This document shows positions 11,138-61,186 of a stretch of 64,000 nt of DNA, one piece after another. The stretch lies in contig OZ024743.1 of NCBI GenBank assembly GCA_964016885.1, positions 97,278,001-97,342,000 on the forward strand, given 5' to 3'. Each line of letters starts with the position of its first letter. The first letter of the stretch is position 1. Position numbers and translations under genes: made by a program. This DNA comes from Eledone cirrhosa. Taxonomy: Eukaryota. A model generated the notes under the pieces. The model searched no databases and was not told the origin of the DNA. It saw nothing but the letters and a program-made list of their open reading frames with translations.

Positions 11138-14016
11138 GGTCACAGCTGTAATGTTATAGGTCACAGTTGTAACACTAGGTCACAGCTGTAATGTTATAGG
11201 TCACAGTTGTAACACTAGGTCACAGCTGTAATGTTATAGGTCACAGTTGTAACACTAGGTCATAGCTGTAATGTTATAGGTTACAGTTGTAACACTAGGT
11301 CACAGCTGTAATGTTATAGGTCACAGTTGTAACACTAGGTCACAGCTGTAATGTTATAGGTCACAGTTGTAACACTAGGTCATAGCTGTAATGTTATAGG
11401 TCACAGTTGTAACACTAGGTCACAGCTGTAATGTTATAGGTAATAGTTGTAACACTAGGTCACAGCTGTAATGTTATAGGTTACAGTTGTAACACTAGGT
11501 CACAGCTGTAATGTTATAGGTTACAGTTGTAACACTAGGTCACAGCTGTAATGTTATAGGTAACAGTTGTAACACTAGGTCACAGCTGTAATGTTATAGG
11601 TCACAGTTGTAACACTAGGTCACAGCTGTAATGTTATAGGTCACAGTTGTAACACTAGGTCACAGCTGTAATGTTATAGGTCACAGTTGTAACACTAGGT
11701 CACAGCTGTAATGTTATAGGTTACAGTTGTAACACTAGGTCACAGCTGTAATGTTATAGGTCACAGTTGTAACACTATAGGTTACAAATGTAACACTATA
11801 GGTCACAGCTGTAACGCTATAGGTCACAGCTATAACACTATAGGTCACAGTTGTAATACTATAGGTCACAGCTGTAACACTATAGGTCATAGCTGTAACA
11901 CTATAGGTGACAGCTGTAACACTATACGTCACAGTCGTAACACTATGTCACAGTTGTAACACTATAGGTCACAGCTGTAACACTATAGGTCACAGCTGTA
12001 ACACTATAGGTGACAGCTATAACACTATAGGTGACAGCTGTAACACTATAGGTGACAGCTGTAACACTATAGGTGACAGCTGTAACACTACAGGTGACAG
12101 CTGTAACACTATAGGAGACAGATGCAAAACTATAGGTACACTGTAACACTACAGGTCACAGATGTAACACTATAGATGACAGCTGTAACACTATAGGTCA
12201 CAGTTGTAACACAATGTCACAGTTGTATCACAATAGGTCACAGCTGTAACACAATAGGTCGCAGCTGTAACACTATAGGTGACAGCTGTAACACTATAGG
12301 TCACAGGTGTAACACTATAGGTGACAGCTGTAACACTATAGGTCACAGCTGTAACGCTATAGGTGACAGCTGTAACACCATAGCTGACAGCTGTAACACT
12401 ATAGGTGACAGCTGTAACACTATAGGTGACAACTGTAACACTATACATCACAGCCGTAACACTATAGGTGACAGCTGTAACACTATAGGTGACAGCTGTA
12501 ACACTATAGGTGACAGCTGTAACACTACAGGTCACAGCTGTAATACTATAGGTCACAGCTGTAACACTATAGGTCAAAGTTGTAACACTAGGTCACAGTT
12601 GTAACACTAGAGGTGAAGGCTGTAACACTATAGGTCACCGCTGTAACACTAAATGTCACAGCTGTAAAACTATAGGTCACAGCTGTAACACTATAGGTGA
12701 CAGATGTAACATTATAGGTTACGCCGTAAAATTATAGGCGACACCTGTAACACTATAGGTGATAGCTGTAACACTATAGGTCATATCTGTAACACTATAG
12801 GTTACAGCTGTAACACGATAGGTGACAGCTGTAACACTATAGGTCACAGCTGTAACACTATAGATCACAGCTGTAACACTACAGATCACAGCTGTAACAC
12901 TATAGGTGACAGCTGTAACACTATAGGTGACATATGTAACACTATAGGTCACAGCTGTAACAGTATAGGCGACATCTGTAACACTATAGGTGACATCTGT
13001 AACAGTATAGGTGACATCTGTGACACTATAGGTGACATCTGTAACAGTATAGGTGTCATCTGTGACACTATATGTCACAGCTGTAACTCTATAGGTCACA
13101 GCTGTAACACTATAGGTGACAGCTGTAACACTGTACGTCACACTGTAACACTATAGGTCACAGCTGTAACACTGTAGGTTACAGCTGTAACACTATAGGT
13201 GACAGCTGTAACACTGTACGTCACACTGTAACACTATAGGTCACATCTGTAACACTGTAGGTGACAGCTGTAACACTATAGGTCCCACTGTAACACTATA
13301 GGTTACAGCTGTAACACTATAGGTCACAGCTGTAACACTATATGTTACAGCTGTAACACTAGCTCACACTGTAACACTATAGGTCACAGCTGTAACACTG
13401 TGGGTGACAGCTGTAACGCTACATGTGACAGCTGTAACACTATAGGTCACAGCTGTAACACTGTAAGTGACAGCTGTAACACTGTAGGTGACAGCTGTAA
13501 CACTGTAGGTTACAGCTGTAACACTATAGGTCACAGCTGTTACACTATATGTTACAGCTGTAACACTATAGGTCACACTGTAACACTATAGGTCGCACTG
13601 TAACACTATAGGTTACCCTGTAACACTGTAGGTTACAACAGCTGTAACACTATAGGTCACAGCTGTAACACTATAGGTCATACTGTAACACTGTAGGTGA
13701 CAGCTGTAACACTGTAGGTCACACTGTAACACTATAGGTCACACTGTAACACTATATATCACAGCTGTAACACTGTAGGTGACAGCTGTAACACTGTAGG
13801 TCACAGCTGTAACACTGTAGGTGACATCTGTAACAATGTAGGTCATAGCTGTAACACTATAGGTCACAGCTGTAACACTATAGGTGACAGCTGAAACACT
13901 ATAGCTCACTGCTGTACCACTATAGGTCACAGCTGTAACACTGTAGGTGTCATCTGTAACACTGTAGGTCACAGCTGTATCACTATAGGTCACACTGTAA
14001 CACTGTAGGTTACAGC
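11138..14016. repeat. Minisatellite, 21-bp unit GGTCACAGCTGTAACACTATA, with a 40-bp higher-order block at the left end
   Basis: Direct reading; 11138-11760 alternates 21- and 19-bp variants. Confidence 0.95.
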
Positions 14017-15084: not shown

Positions 15085-15088
<4 letters not shown>

Positions 15089-15220
15089 ATAATAATAAAT
15101 TTGAAGACTAAAATCCAAAGAGGGCTCGATAAGGATAAATATATATCAAATATATAAGAACCGTAGAGCAAAATGGGTGAAAGCAGCGATTCTTTGCTTA
15201 AACTTTAATCTGTAATTTTA

Positions 15221-15224
<4 letters not shown>
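15085..15224. mobile_element. Truncated, internally inverted CAGAAGA-family copy in (TA)n
   Basis: 15085-15172 is the family tail in minus sense; 15175-15224 is the 3' half of the HHR in plus sense. Confidence 0.75.
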
Positions 15225-15294
<70 letters not shown>

Positions 15295-15693
15295 GGAAGA
15301 AATGAAACGAAATTGCATTTCTCACTCTTAGTACAGCTGTTACTTAAATATAAGTATGTATACGTACATACATATATGTATACAGACGTACAGTAGTATG
15401 TATAATAAATGTTCGGTGAATCCATACGTACATATATATATGTGTGCATGTATGTATATATATACATACTACTGTACGACTGTATACATATATGTATGTA
15501 CGTATACAAACTTATATTTAAGTAACAGCCGTACTAAGAGTGAGAAATGAAATTTCGTTTCATTTTTTCTGTTTATCGTTTTCGGTACCCCGACCGATTA
15601 ACTCACTCGATATGCAAATTAGGCTGCTCAGCCGTTAATATGCATAAGGAAAGTATATACTTTCAGACGTTCAACCATCTGGCAGGAAGGTAT

Positions 15694-15736
15694 ACCTTGC
15701 TGACGATAGCTAATAAGCTTGAAACTAGTACAGCGT
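15694..15736 (+). ncRNA. Minimal type I hammerhead ribozyme, unit 1
   Basis: ACCTTG-CTGACGA-T-AGCT-AATA-AGCT-T-GAAA-CTAG-TA|CAGCGT; palindromic stem III ACTAGT; GUA site at 15730. Confidence 0.8.
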
Positions 15737-16126
15737 TCCTTTGTCAGTGTTGAACAAATGAGCAACGATGGTTGCTAGACACTGTACGGCTTAATTCGGG
15801 ATGTTTGTTTACAAACACACCGAGCATTATAATAAATGTTCGGTGAATCCATACGTACATATATATATATATGTGTGCATGTATGTATATATATATACAT
15901 ACTACTGTACGTCTGTATACATATATGTATGTACGTATACATACTTATATTTAAGTAACAGCCGTACTAAGAGTGAGAAATGAAATTTCGTTTCATTATT
16001 TCTGTTTATCGTTTTCGGTACCCCGACCGATTAACTCACTCGATATGCAAATTAGGCAGCTCAGCCGTTAATATGCATAAGGAAAATATATACTTTCAGA
16101 TGTTCAACTACCTGGCAGGAAGGTAT

Positions 16127-16169
16127 ACCTTGCTGACGATAGCTAATAAGCTTGAAACTAGTACAGCGT
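16127..16169 (+). ncRNA. Minimal type I hammerhead ribozyme, unit 2
   Basis: Identical to unit 1; site at 16163. Confidence 0.8.
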
Positions 16170-16553
16170 TCCTTTGTCAGTGTTGAACAAATGAGCAACG
16201 ATGGTTGCTAGACACTGTACGGCTTAATTCGGGATGTTTGTTTACAAACACACCGAACATTATAATACATGTTCGGTGAATCCATACGTACATATATATA
16301 TGTGTGCATGTATGTATATATATACATACTACTGTACGTCTGTATACATATATGTATGTACGTATACATACTTATATTTAAGTAACAGCCGTACTAAGAG
16401 TGAGAAATGAAATTTCGTTTCATTTTTTCTGTTTATCGTTTTCGGTACCCCGACCGATTAACTCACTCGATATGCAAATTAGGCTGCTCAGCCGTTAATA
16501 TGCATAAGGAAAGTATATACTTTCAGACGTTCAACCATCTGGCAGGAAGGTAT

Positions 16554-16596
16554 ACCTTGCTGACGATAGCTAATAAGCTTGAAACTAGTACAGCGT
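16554..16596 (+). ncRNA. Minimal type I hammerhead ribozyme, unit 3
   Basis: Identical to unit 1; site at 16590. Confidence 0.8.
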
Positions 16597-16746
16597 TCCT
16601 TTGTCAGTGTTGAACAAATGAGCAACTCGGTTGCTAGACACTGTACGGCTTAATTCGGGATGTTTGTTTACAAACAAACCGAGCATTGTAATAAATGTTC
16701 GTTAAATCCATACGTACATATATATATATATGTGTGTGCATGTATG

Positions 16747-16786
<40 letters not shown>

Positions 16787-17017
16787 GAAACACACAGATA
16801 CATGCGGACACACACATATATACATGAATGCATCCGCACCCAACTGTGAGTTAAGGGTGCCAACTTCACCGATGTTGCTCAATGAATGACTGGGACAGAC
16901 CAATTCAGTTTGAACTAGACTGAACCAGTATCAGAGTTAAAAATACATTATGAAGAGAGAAGAAACATTTAGATATAATTAGTAATAAAATGTATCATAC
17001 CTAAACTGTTCCTAAAT

Positions 17018-17105
17018 TCCTCGACTACGTAGTTTCGTGGCATAAACAAAAACAATATATCAAAGATATAGAGTCCTTGCGAGGTCTGCCGACTTATCAA
17101 GAGGA
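17018..17105 (-). ncRNA. HHR, U3-A8 variant (left arm)
   Basis: Reverse complement of 17997-18084. Confidence 0.75.
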
Positions 17106-17996
17106 TACCTCATTTTACTAGTCTCAAGAACGCGTCTACACGACGTGAGAAAGAATCCCAAAAGGCGGAGGGGGAGATAGTCACGCGATATAACGGTCGA
17201 GAAACAGAGCTAAGCCTCTTATAACCACGAAGAAAATACCACGGAGGCGGAGGGGGTATTCATATCGAGGCCGTAGAAGAGGTAGTGAAGAAGGCGAGAA
17301 GTATGAGTAATGGAAGCTTTCCAGTTGTCCCCACACTTCAAAGATTGCTCGACCAGAGGGAGTTATTAATATATTTAGAAACACACAGATACATGCGGAC
17401 ACACACATATATACATGAATGCATCCGCACCCAACTGTGAGTTAAGGGTGCCAACTTCACCGATGTTGCTCAATGAATGACTGGGACAGACCAATTCAGT
17501 TTGAACTAGACTGAACCAGTATCAGAGTTAAAAATACATTATGAAGAGAGAAGAAACACATAATGTATTTTTAACTTTGATACTGGTTCAGTCTAGTTCA
17601 AACTGAATTGGTCTGTCCCAGTCATTCATTGAGCAACATCGGTGAAGTTGGCACCCTTAACTCACAGTTGGGTGCGGATGCATTCATGTATATATGTGTG
17701 TGTCCGCATGTATCTGTGTGTTTCTAAATATATTAATAACTCCCTCTGGTCGAGCAATCTTTGAAGTGTGGGGACAACTGGAAAGCTTCCATTACTCATA
17801 CTTCTCGCCTTCTTCACTACCTCTTCTACGGCCTCGATATGAATACCCCCTCCGCCTCCGTGGTATTTTCTTCGTGGTTATAAGAGGCTTAGCTCTGTTT
17901 CTCGACCGCTATATCGCGTGACTATCTCCCCCTCCGCCTTTTGGGATTCTTTCTCACGTCGTGTAGACGCGTTCTTGAGACTAGTAAAATGAGGTA

Positions 17997-18084
17997 TCCT
18001 CTTGATAAGTCGGCAGACCTCGCAAGGACTCTATATCTTTGATATATTGTTTTTGTTTATGCCACGAAACTACGTAGTCGAGGA
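17997..18084 (+). ncRNA. HHR, U3-A8 variant with long stem II (right arm)
   Basis: TCCTC-TTGATAA-GT(c)GGCA...TGCC-AC-GAAA-CTACGTAG-TC|GAGGA; GUC site at 18079. Confidence 0.75.
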
Positions 18085-18153
18085 ATTTAGGAACAGTTTA
18101 GGTATGATACATTTTATTACTAATTATATCTAAATGTTTCTTCTCTCTTCATA

Positions 18154-18184
<31 letters not shown>

Positions 18185-18189
<5 letters not shown>

Positions 18190-18371
18190 GCAAACGTACA
18201 GTAGTATGTATATATATATACATACATGCACACATATATATATGTATGTATGGATTCACCGAACATGTATTATAATGTTCGGTGTGTTTGTAAACAAACA
18301 TCCAGAATTAAGCCGTACAGTGTCTAGCAACCATCGTTGCTCATTTGTTCAACACTGACAAAGGAACGCTG
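18185..18371 (-). mobile_element. Inverted partial copy of the ~430-bp retrozyme-like unit
   Basis: Reverse complement of the unit from CAGCGTTCCTTTG onward. Confidence 0.85.
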
Positions 18372-22217: not shown

Positions 22218-22562
22218 TGGATTGGCAGTATCGGTAGATGGTCGGACGCCATGCTTTGCAGCAAAAAGTTACGGCCCTTTATGGTCTGAGTTCAAATCCC
22301 GCCGAGGTTAACTTTGCCTTTCATCCTTACGGAGTCGGTAAAATAAAGTACCAGTAAAACACTGAGATAATTGCTGGCCAAAAGTAGAAACAATTATTAG
22401 GGTCGGACGCCATGCTTTCCAGCATAGTTACGTCCCTTCACGATCTGAGTTCAAATCCCGCCGAGGTTGACTTTACCTTTCATCCTTACGGGGTCGATAA
22501 AATAAAGTACCAGTAATGCACTGGGTAATTTCTGGCCTTGTGCCTAAAGTAGAAACAATTAT
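22218..22562 (+). mobile_element. Two head-to-tail SINE copies (22218-22397, 22399-22562)
   Basis: Family head, core and tail appear twice; the second copy is 5'-truncated. Confidence 0.85.
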
Positions 22563-33328: not shown

Positions 33329-33367
33329 TGAACCTGAAGATTGCGAAAGCATGAAAGTACTTGTTCA
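33329..33367 (+). ncRNA. Solitary 39-nt minimal HHR
   Basis: TGAAC-CTGAAGA-T-TGC-GAAA-GCA-T-GAAA-GTAC-TT|GTTCA; perfect stem I, GNRA loop II, palindromic stem III. Confidence 0.75.
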
Positions 33368-49149: not shown

Positions 49150-51210
49150 TACTGTTAGAACATGTTTATACAAAAGCACCTACGTACGTTTCGCCCGAAA
49201 AGGGCTTATCGAGGTCATACAAGCCTAGAGAGTGTTCAGTACAGGACCCAGAAAGGGTTTTAAAGTGATAGTCACATCAAAGTTAATTCTTGCTTCAAAC
49301 AGACATGTTGTTATTGTCACACAGCAAGGGGAGTAACTCTGGCCGGTGTTTGAATAAATGTCCCTAAATGGCTTATCATCCGTTCACATGATGGTTGTTT
49401 TCCACTACTGTTTTATGGGTGCCACTTTACTGCTGCCTAGTCCAGACGGATCTGAGAGGCATAGTTGGTGTACAGATGTTTAGTTATGTAACCTACCCTC
49501 CGGCGTGTTATGGTTTGGTGCAGGGGAACCCAGTTTATGGTGTTCAGGTCTCAATTGGGGTCCAACCACAGAAAGACTGCTGTATTCTGTGTCTGCAGTT
49601 TATCACAGATTCTGCTCTGCTGTTGATGAGCTCTAGGGGTGCTCTTATGATATGGAAAAGTTCCATGAGGCAGAGCTGGCACTTCCTCTTGAAGTTGTAC
49701 GGTGTTGCCCTGCTGACAATTTCCCAGTATGTGGAGAAGCTCATGTTGGAGTCTTTCAATGTTGTGTTGTAGTTGGCGAGTGACGTGGAGTATCTTAGCT
49801 TCTTGTTTCTAAAAAAGTGGAGATGTGTTCGAAATCTAGTTTTGATCGAGCCAGGGGTGACCCCTATATAATGCTTGACGCTATTATGGCTAGTTACGGT
49901 GCACCTATAAATAACATTATCTGTCAGGCAAATTCCCCTGAGCGGACAGCTTCCCTGATCTCTACAGTTGCATTGTCGGTCGCGGTCGCTGCCGCTAAGG
50001 TGGCTCCTAGTGCCCGAAGTAAGGCCATTACTATCGCTACCTATGTTATTATCCACGCCACCGCCACTATCTCTGTAGTTAGTACTATTATATCCTATGG
50101 CGTGCGGGGTAGTACCATTATCACTCCGCACGCCACAGCGGCTTCTGTTGCCACTTCGTGATCCGTACAGGTCACCAGTATGCTGCCCAGTCTCGCCGCG
50201 GTTATGTCGGTTGCGTCTGTTGGAGCTGCCGCCAACACTGTCAGGTGCTGCTAGGGAAACGTTAAGGCTGTTGGGGTTGCTGTCAAGTCTATACTTATCG
50301 CTGCTATGGTGCCGTGCTTTGGTGGGCTTACTGTAATTAGTTATCCTTATGATGTCTCCTAGATTAAGTGTAGTGGAGAAGATATTTTAATATTGCTCTT
50401 ATTGAGGATTTTTCTGTACTTATGGTTGGGTGGGAAGTTCTTCTCTAAGGTTTCGAAAAATATCCTGGGCAAGTCAGAGGCCACACTCCAAGAGTAGGGA
50501 GGACGGAACCATAGGACATTACGTTGGCGGTTACGCGTAGCTGTGGGCTTACTACGGGTCGTGTTGGCTAGGTAACCGTTCTTATTGTTGCTACTGTGCT
50601 GAAGCCTACTGCGCGTCCGCATCGCTTTATGCTCGCGTGCACGCGCCTTACTTCCGTTATGTTTATATGTAGCTTAACGCCGGTTTGAAGGTGTAGGTAA
50701 TAGGCCATCGCTATTGTTAACCTTATAGGTAGGGAATAATTATAGTAGGCTACAGCAGCTACCGTTGCCCGTATCATGACACTTATTATGCGGTAGATCT
50801 TCTATACCACCACCCATGTAGTTATCGCTACGGCCGTGTTTCTTTGTGCGATTCTCTATACTATAGTTATTGACTCTATCATGACCGCTGCGTATTCGGT
50901 TATAGGTATGGCTTACTATAACATTAGTCCTATGATGGGGTGGTTTCTAGAGTTAGCGTTAAGGAGGTAAGAGATTCTTCGGTTATAGCCGGCATCTACC
51001 AAGGCTTTATTGTAGTAGTCGGCCGCTTGGTTGATGTTCTCTTTGGCGGACATCCTAGAGATCCTATGGGATACGCTATATACTATGGAGTTGAGAGTAG
51101 ACTTAGGATGGTTGGATGCATAATTAATATATGATAGAATCTCACCGTGCTTATGGTATGGCTTGATAGGCCCTTACCCAACTCCAGGGTCACGTCCAGG
51201 AAGTTGACTA
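49150..51210 (-). mobile_element. 5'-truncated Penelope-like element (RT C-terminus, linker, GIY-YIG endonuclease, 3' HHR)
   Basis: Motifs in order: VNFLDVTL; YINYASNHP...RISRMS...YNKALVDAGY; RNVLWFRPPYS...NFP..HKYRKILNKSNIKIS; CNCR..CPL.G.CL..NVIYRC..YIG.T..KTRF..H...CQLC. HHR-like motif at 49176-49216; (TA)n on both sides. Confidence 0.92.
49544..49980 (-). pseudogene. GIY-YIG endonuclease domain of the Penelope-like element
   Basis: VIY...YIG with catalytic R and E positions, and Cys motifs typical of Penelope endonucleases. Confidence 0.9.
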
Positions 51211-60717: not shown

Positions 60718-61094
60718 CTAAGTATGTATGTATGTATACGTACATACATATCTGTATACAGACGTACAGTAGTATGTATATATACATACATGCACACATA
60801 TATATATGCACGTATCGGTTTACCGAACATTTATTATAATGCCCGGTTTGTTTGTTTGTAAACAGTGTACGGCGTAATTCGGGCTGTTTGTTTGTTTGTT
60901 TGTAAACAGCCCGAATTACGCCGTACACTGTTTAGGCAACCGATACGTGCATATATATATGTGTGCATGTATGTATATATATACATACTACTGTACGTCT
61001 GTATACATATATGTATGCACGTATACATACATGCTTACATTTAAGTAACAGCCGTACTAAGAGTGAGAAATGAAATTTCGATTCATTCTATTCC

Positions 61095-61098
<4 letters not shown>
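60718..61098. mobile_element. Fold-back fragment of the ~430-bp unit lacking the HHR (another fragment at ~880-1030)
   Basis: Inverted halves around ~60895; homologous to 15780-16005. Confidence 0.75.

Positions 61099-61186
<88 letters not shown>

Follow-up and report, generated by a model that had tools for sequence, protein, structure and literature searches.

The 64,000-nt stretch of Eledone cirrhosa DNA analysed here (the window) harbours a tandem array that is one insertion of a dispersed, non-coding repeat family, designated family A, the features of which are listed in Table 1; unit positions (u) are counted from u1 = 15731, the base directly 3' of the predicted cut. TRF reported a period of 433, 3.2 copies and 95% matches over 15401-16760, and no ORF of at least 100 codons was found in the units, except for one AT-repeat frame extending into the flank, in agreement with an initial sequence-only reading of three near-identical non-coding units. 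That reading had placed the array at 15291-16760; the tandem portion was confirmed for 15401-16760, whereas the segment 15289-15404 was shown to represent an inverted arm. The three units exhibit 3-9 differences per ~330 aligned non-microsatellite bases, and an alternating dimer pattern was not supported, as unit 2 has private changes and units 1 and 3 carry the common state. GC content is 0.30-0.40 in the two 2-kb bins covering the array. The monomer was predicted to fold with a z-score of -8.4, a stability equalled in 0/100 shuffles and to which the AT-repeat hairpin contributes part. The inverted arm adjoins a (TA)n tract that terminates a fragment of a different repeat (15086-15221) and is likely to be the insertion target of this family A copy.

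Table 1. Positions of the family A and family B features within the window
Feature	Positions	Strand	Remarks
(TA)n tract	15221-15291		adjoins outward-facing 3' end of inverted arm
Inverted arm, family A	15289-15404	-	~u164-279; terminates at site B (u279), a fixed 3' end
Direct arm, family A	15401-16760	+	3.2 tandem units; u98 to ~u165 in AT-rich hairpin
Long-range helix	15527-15791	+	15527-15533 with 15785-15791, around the ribozyme domain
Type I hammerhead motif 1	15694-15736	+	predicted cut 15730/15731; C-C mismatch at 15696
Monomer, 433 nt	15731-16163	+	predicted, cleavage to cleavage
'Tail' between two fixed 3' ends	15950-16009	+	site A (u220-223) to site B (u279), internal here
Type I hammerhead motif 2	16127-16169	+	predicted cut 16163/16164; C-C mismatch at 16129
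Monomer, 427 nt	16164-16590	+	predicted, cleavage to cleavage
Type I hammerhead motif 3	16554-16596	+	predicted cut 16590/16591; C-C mismatch at 16556
Nested family B, 591-nt unit	16785-18157		arms 16785-17558 (-) and 17559-18157 (+)
Second family A copy	18186-18371	-	u1 to ~u182; 5' end exactly at predicted cleavage site

Motif 1 comprises, in order, helix I, the core (15700-15706), a U-U pair topped by a 4-bp helix II, GAAA and a palindromic helix III, with the extended stem spanning 15670-15754. In every window unit (3/3), CTGACGA and the palindrome ACTAGT are present together with GAAA, the U-U-based 4-bp helix II and the predicted cut sequence GTA/CAG. The latter falls at the cuts (after 15730, 16163 and 16590) that had been proposed to release monomers of 433 and 427 nt, and these predicted positions, like the palindromic stem III, were thus corroborated. 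Conversely, the earlier designation as a minimal HHR was not upheld. The min-HHR of metazoan Penelope-like elements (PLEs) is described, in the accessible part of PMC4209133, as having a helix I of 4-5 bp, a helix II of 7-8 bp and G10.1-C11.1 after an unpaired base, whereas helix I of family A comprises 6 contiguous bp in 97/121 copies and helix II comprises 4 bp. With this helix I, this helix II and a short palindromic helix III, the family A motif is, judged by its sequence, a canonical-sized metazoan type I hammerhead, which would be expected to act as a dimer.

In the three window motifs, the C-C mismatch leaves 3 bp of helix I, which is predicted to weaken the ribozyme of this copy; in run X3, possibly derived from the assembly's own sample, G accounts for 99% of the depth at 16556. 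With helix I interrupted at 15696, 16129 and 16556, the locus is less plausible as a source of RNA. The idea of a retrozyme array acting as an RNA source is supported as regards the retrozyme family and is weakened for the window locus, which is itself unlikely to be an efficient source of monomers. Predicted circular folds showed helix I at a probability of 0.45-0.94 in typical monomers and 0-0.15 in that of the window. An alternative pairing between the core and helix III was predicted to compete in 5/5 monomer folds (probability 0.3-0.98), and helix III itself was absent from the predicted circular folds of all five. For the family as a whole, the ribozyme is likely to cleave, the ACUAGU palindrome probably bringing two units together as a dimer. 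Rfam returned no hammerhead match in the window at the gathering score, nor among the 120 matches with E<=5, and its miRNA matches below the cut-off represent AT hairpins. Two copies (L151 and L152) were observed to lack exactly the base preceding the cut site, which may be a ligation scar or a chance deletion.

Helices within the ribozyme and beyond it covary between the two subfamilies. One helix I pair occurs as UG (35), GU (7), AU (2) and CG (1) among 49 distinct copies, i.e. those aligned out of 52 listed, three with indels or foreign flanks being omitted. An alignment of 360 columns was compiled from 38 of 48 segments, with extra units of the same array mostly omitted and most loci selected by patterns demanding an intact ribozyme core; in this alignment, 98.3% of cells pair, and 5/63 pairs change on both sides, across four helices inside and outside the ribozyme. 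The long-range helix (Table 1) contains two pairs with compensatory changes between subfamilies. Cells changed on both sides numbered 35, compared with 1-4 in slid controls, and the number of covarying pairs was not above that of shuffles (306/500 reach it), all of these counts representing few independent events. Furthermore, a subfamily-2 copy, chosen by proximity without a ribozyme pattern, differed from the window at 0/26 constrained core positions and at 57/305 positions elsewhere (Fisher p 0.006; N7 and loop II excluded beforehand).

To determine its copy number, family A was searched for in the entire genome (3.0 Gb, 1,796 contigs). A 311-nt query identified 564 candidates, of which the 40 scored were 97-100% identical and spread over many contigs. 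The exact 34-nt ribozyme pattern yielded 9,989 matches genome-wide (reversed pattern 0), and an overlapping pattern covering a helix I variant and the second subfamily yielded 15,275 (reversed control 0); these numbers are not additive, as the two match sets overlap, and they show that the array does not represent a single local duplication. Median divergence between loci was 4.8% for subfamily 1 (39 segments) and 2.3% for subfamily 2 (9 segments), compared with 18% between the two subfamilies, indicative of a young family with more than one burst. The recently spread retrozyme family envisaged in the sequence-only reading was thereby borne out, at more than 15,000 motifs.

All 23 complete monomers fall within 412-538 nt, their length varying mostly through the AT-repeat hairpin. 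Most family A loci hold 1-1.6 units. Among 24 loci taken in genome order, 20 carry one ribozyme per strand within 1.5 kb, three carry two and one carries three; window-like arrays are therefore a minority, and the 20 loci with a single ribozyme per strand would be unable to release a monomer. Based on its tandem units, low GC content, one hammerhead per unit, non-coding nature and dispersal in multiple copies, family A is classed as a non-LTR retrozyme of a known kind, and probably a non-autonomous PLE. At L027:1283-2574, in a locus with a 6-bp helix I (G000:C2:365006700-365008400), the array is mosaic: monomer 3 has variants in common with monomer 1 in u1-100 and with monomer 2 in u280-330. 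Short family A pieces without a ribozyme are present elsewhere in the window, at 879-1033 and ~60720-61100, the latter being an inverted pair that ends at sites A and B.

The termini of family A copies were shown to be asymmetric: 5' ends (read by eye from the table) are scattered round the unit, whereas 3' ends lie at two fixed sites ~56 nt apart, namely site A (~u200-223, mostly u220-223) and site B (u279). Under anchor-based classes, site A accounts for 46 ends in 72 independent loci and site B for 44, with TA repeats after 43 and 38 of these, respectively. TA repeats thus follow 81/90 terminal ends, a raw proportion in a TA-rich genome, and target-site duplications, longer than 4 bp where present in non-LTR retrozymes, would be masked, as most ends abut (TA)n. 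Ends were observed on both strands in 24 of the 72 loci, on one strand only in 39 and on neither in 9. Inverted insertions pair site A with site B in 22/24 cases (binomial p 1.8e-5 against independent choice); the remaining two were classed as B with B, one having an arm cut short at u257 and the other an extra break in the locus.

Partial tandems, 5' truncation and an inverted 5' arm were also found among family A copies. PLEs are described, in the accessible part of PMC8557442, as showing partial tandems, an inverted 5' copy, a (TA)n bias and a tail of 30-40 bp that is often present at one end only, and a tail bounded by two internal reverse transcriptase start sites, termed unique to PLEs, was demonstrated in vitro in PMC11167929. 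Because the family A footprint matches these tail, tandem and inverted structures, the family behaves as a PLE substrate, consistent with the PLE mobilisation that had been suggested, given the PLE-type ends (sites A and B, TA repeats). We infer that sites A and B, which bound the tail at 15950-16009, are reverse-transcription start sites. Target-primed reverse transcription by a PLE at (TA)n nicks, starting at site B for one arm and at site A for the other, is very probable, and the genomic evidence for PLE mobilisation of family A is unusually clear. Simple twin priming on one RNA was considered and rejected, as it predicts site-B arms from u224, which were seen only in L039. In several inverted insertions (L006, L017, L028, L036 and L039), the 5' ends of the two arms are within ~30 nt of one another in unit coordinates despite an arm-length difference of one whole unit, a hint that the arms may have been joined via hairpins of the element itself.

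Potential coding partners are present in the same genome. A GIY-YIG search returned 10,597 candidates, 150 of which were scored, and ORFs of up to 1096 aa combining a reverse transcriptase and GIY-YIG were identified, with hammerheads in their 3' regions and (TA)n ends. Several resident PLEs possess a Cys-rich linker before GIY-YIG, as in the Neptune/Nematis type, and for one resident PLE protein the relatives with a name are chiefly bivalve sequences (~47-63%). Among the 70 PLE loci inspected (30 GIY-YIG loci and 40 regions, out of more than 10,000 GIY-YIG candidates), family A is the element's own 3' region in none, and no 3' region is homologous to A or B; family A occurs in two of these loci, only as a separate insertion. 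PLE-protein matches near 12/72 family A loci are in mixed orientations and belong to families with their own 3' regions. In this limited sample of 72 family and 70 PLE loci, no ORF with reverse transcriptase and GIY-YIG was found joined to a family A unit, and thus no coding PLE of which the unit would be the pLTR, an alternative that the sequence-only reading had itself raised. The ribozyme of one resident coding PLE family is built like that of family A, with the U-U, a short helix II and a palindromic 2-bp helix III, and the two families have no further similarity. Coding RT-GIY-YIG families with U3-A8 hammerhead cores, at a distance of ~1.1 kb or 0.5 kb beyond the ORF, were observed at L102, L104, L101, L123 and L106 and at L093 and L118; a search for CUGANGA overlooks these hammerheads. 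In the window, 49544-50517 (-) encompasses a PLE-type endonuclease frame fragment with 39% identity to an abundant resident family and no Pfam match.

With regard to the RNA template, common family A copies measure 450-700 nt and read through the predicted cleavage site. To give copies of that length, reverse transcription begun at u223 or u279 has to pass the cut site; the usual template is thus not a cleaved linear monomer and would be either a circle or an uncleaved multimer. The second family A copy of the window, with its 5' end at the cut, had suggested a linear cleaved template as the main route. This was rejected because cut-site 5' ends are rare and not clearly enriched: of 11 genome-wide matches 7 were true, compared with 1 and 5 in unfiltered neighbouring-position controls, in a test confined to ends flanked by three mismatched bases. 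The four matches dropped comprised two 1-nt deletions, one internal deletion and one local duplication. Rare variants common to the units were detected in three arrays (8, 7 and 13 variants), as expected from one monomer template, and 5/8 multi-copy loci exhibited 0-1 rare variants common to all units, which together gives no decision between circle and multimer. The chances that the usual template is a circular monomer, as opposed to an uncleaved multimer, are judged to be even.

Overall, family A is a non-coding hammerhead repeat family of 430-540 nt that is probably copied by PLE enzymes, possibly by way of an RNA circle. In the mechanism proposed, a resident PLE reverse transcriptase and GIY-YIG endonuclease would copy family A RNA, with (TA)n nicks priming reverse transcription at two fixed internal RNA sites, A and B, one per arm, and with the reverse transcriptase likely reading round a ribozyme-made RNA circle. 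A more specific model, in which the hammerhead generates a viroid-sized circle, the PLE primes each nicked (TA)n strand at its own fixed site and several such circle families exist, is put forward tentatively. It is also possible, although short of an even chance, that the same non-autonomous PLE family uses an uncleaved multimer as template, with a slow or protein-assisted hammerhead and rare or irrelevant circles. Read-through of the cut site fits this equally well, as do the rare variants that are not common to all units in most arrays. In the one purified PLE system, the anole Poseidon, the ribozyme was dispensable, its mutants being without effect on insertion, and unprocessed RNA was the main template (PMC11167929); likewise, cleavage in vitro was reported for 1/9 Xenopus retrozyme dimers in the accessible part of Li, Clavereau and Pollet 2026 (bioRxiv 10.64898/2026.07.22.740005). 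A multimer template is, however, less readily reconciled with a core that is conserved while the rest diverges by 18% between subfamilies, with the three arrays that have 7-13 rare variants common to their units, or with the retrozymes of mussel, coral and axolotl, which are described as cleaving and accumulating as circles (PMC7229834, in part).

Two further readings concern the nature of the unit itself. That it represents the pLTR of a coding PLE, the copies being 5'-truncated insertions of that element, is very unlikely. The insertion features are indeed all those of PLEs, a relationship of Xenopus retrozymes to pLTRs is described (bioRxiv 10.64898/2026.07.22.740005, in its accessible part), and the 70 loci inspected represent a small share of the more than 10,000 GIY-YIG candidates. 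Units nevertheless close on themselves at 412-538 nt, leaving no room for an ORF, PLE matches near family A loci are in mixed orientations with 3' regions of their own, and in the two of 70 PLE loci that contain it, family A is a separate insertion. Family A may still have descended from an old pLTR. A repeat propagated at the DNA level (satellite, foldback or MITE-like), with the hammerhead as a passenger or chance motif, is scarcely credible: inverted repeats with TA flanks do resemble DNA elements, some homogenisation of units could be local and Rfam gave no match, whereas the polarity of fixed 3' and scattered 5' ends, arms that differ in length, covariation via G-U pairs on a single strand and the dispersal of short arrays on many contigs all argue against this reading.

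The metazoan non-LTR retrozymes described in the accessible part of PMC7229834 resemble family A in having non-coding units of a few hundred nt in tandem, a low GC content, one type I hammerhead per unit, a highly paired monomer, thousands of copies and PLEs in the same genome. The family A unit is near in size to those of mussel retrozymes (350-390 nt), and its U-U beneath helix II and 2-bp helix III are reminiscent of axolotl HHR_Amex2. In contrast to those retrozymes, family A has a predicted cleavage and putative circles and mostly occurs as loci of 1-1.6 units; for them, that part of the paper reports neither a pair of fixed 3' ends nor inverted arms nor (TA)n targeting. Partial tandems, an inverted 5'-truncated arm, a (TA)n bias, an optional tail at one end and a type I hammerhead are features shared with Neptune/Nematis PLEs (PMC4209133 and PMC8557442, both in part), from which family A differs by its lack of an ORF, its canonical-sized ribozyme as opposed to a min-HHR, its tail of ~56 nt as opposed to 30-40 bp (PMC8557442) and the lack, in the loci sampled, of a sequence link to a resident coding family.

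Two adjacent internal reverse transcriptase start sites bounding a tail, AT-rich targets and few ends at the ribozyme cut are also known for Anolis Poseidon PAc (PMC11167929). PAc is a coding element without a strand difference in start site in vitro, whereas the family A sites sort one per arm in 22/24 inverted insertions, each of the two sites being set in AU-rich surroundings with the potential to pair with a TA target. The vertebrate pLTR-derived retrozymes of bioRxiv 10.64898/2026.07.22.740005 are likewise non-autonomous PLE derivatives, and the window array falls within the definition of a minimum of two successive hammerhead-bearing units applied there. In its accessible part, the evidence of that study consists of co-occurrence and pLTR homology, includes no mollusc and gives 14,255 (axolotl) as the largest tandem retrozyme count, whereas the evidence for family A is an insertion footprint.

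No description of family A was found in the accessible literature on octopus/cephalopod retrozymes, hammerheads and Penelope or on non-autonomous Penelope with tail and inversion, and the words 'ribozyme' and 'retrozyme' are absent from the main text, as accessible, of a 2026 Octopus vulgaris repeat annotation (PMC13282606); an entry for family A as an unclassified repeat may already exist, e.g. in Repbase or Dfam. The present analysis thus adds a very large retrozyme family, in Eledone cirrhosa, to a class that is itself already known. The earlier basis for retrozymes riding on PLE enzymes was mainly co-occurrence and pLTR homology. Family A provides a PLE-specific two-site footprint in a 430-nt non-coding unit with young copies and natural variants, and therefore represents a small substrate for addressing the template circle and tandem or inverted insertion, its strict one-site-per-arm pattern being the part of use to specialists. 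If the more specific model is correct, PLE insertions would owe their tail, their tandems and their inverted structures to the one-site-per-strand rule, and several circle families, namely A and its subfamilies as well as B, which has a U3-A8 core, would have multiplied to tens of thousands of copies in this lineage. There is no indication of a host function for family A.

The nested family B unit is also non-coding and present in tandem and inverted form, with a hammerhead-like motif with a U3-A8 core at 17100 (-) and 18002-18084 (+). U3-A8 is a PLE hammerhead variant described in the accessible part of PMC4209133. The family B motif has a long branched helix II and a palindromic helix III and is identical in 61/61 matches, overlapping loci included. 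A 32-nt pattern gave 4,177 exact genome matches, copies are ~99% identical, and two fixed (TA)n-flanked ends lie ~170 nt apart. No run on record as RNA yielded the family A unit, which speaks neither for nor against its transcription. Both families were also detected at a depth of ~10-50 in runs X7 and X8, which are labelled as other organisms and in which the family A and B contigs could be trace DNA or derive from related hosts; one 620-nt contig from these runs wraps round the whole family B unit.

In total, 13 hammerhead motifs passed the descriptor in the 64-kb window. Hammerheads of other families were observed at 33334(+), 37472(-)/39403(+), 40797(-)/40970(+), 47062(-), 52451(-)/57328(+) and 38289(-), several of which form inverted pairs. 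A tRNA gene search of the window returned none. Two adjoining copies of one short repeat, which is presumably SINE-like, are located at ~22240-22560, and a 21-bp minisatellite of 139 copies occupies 11138-14016.
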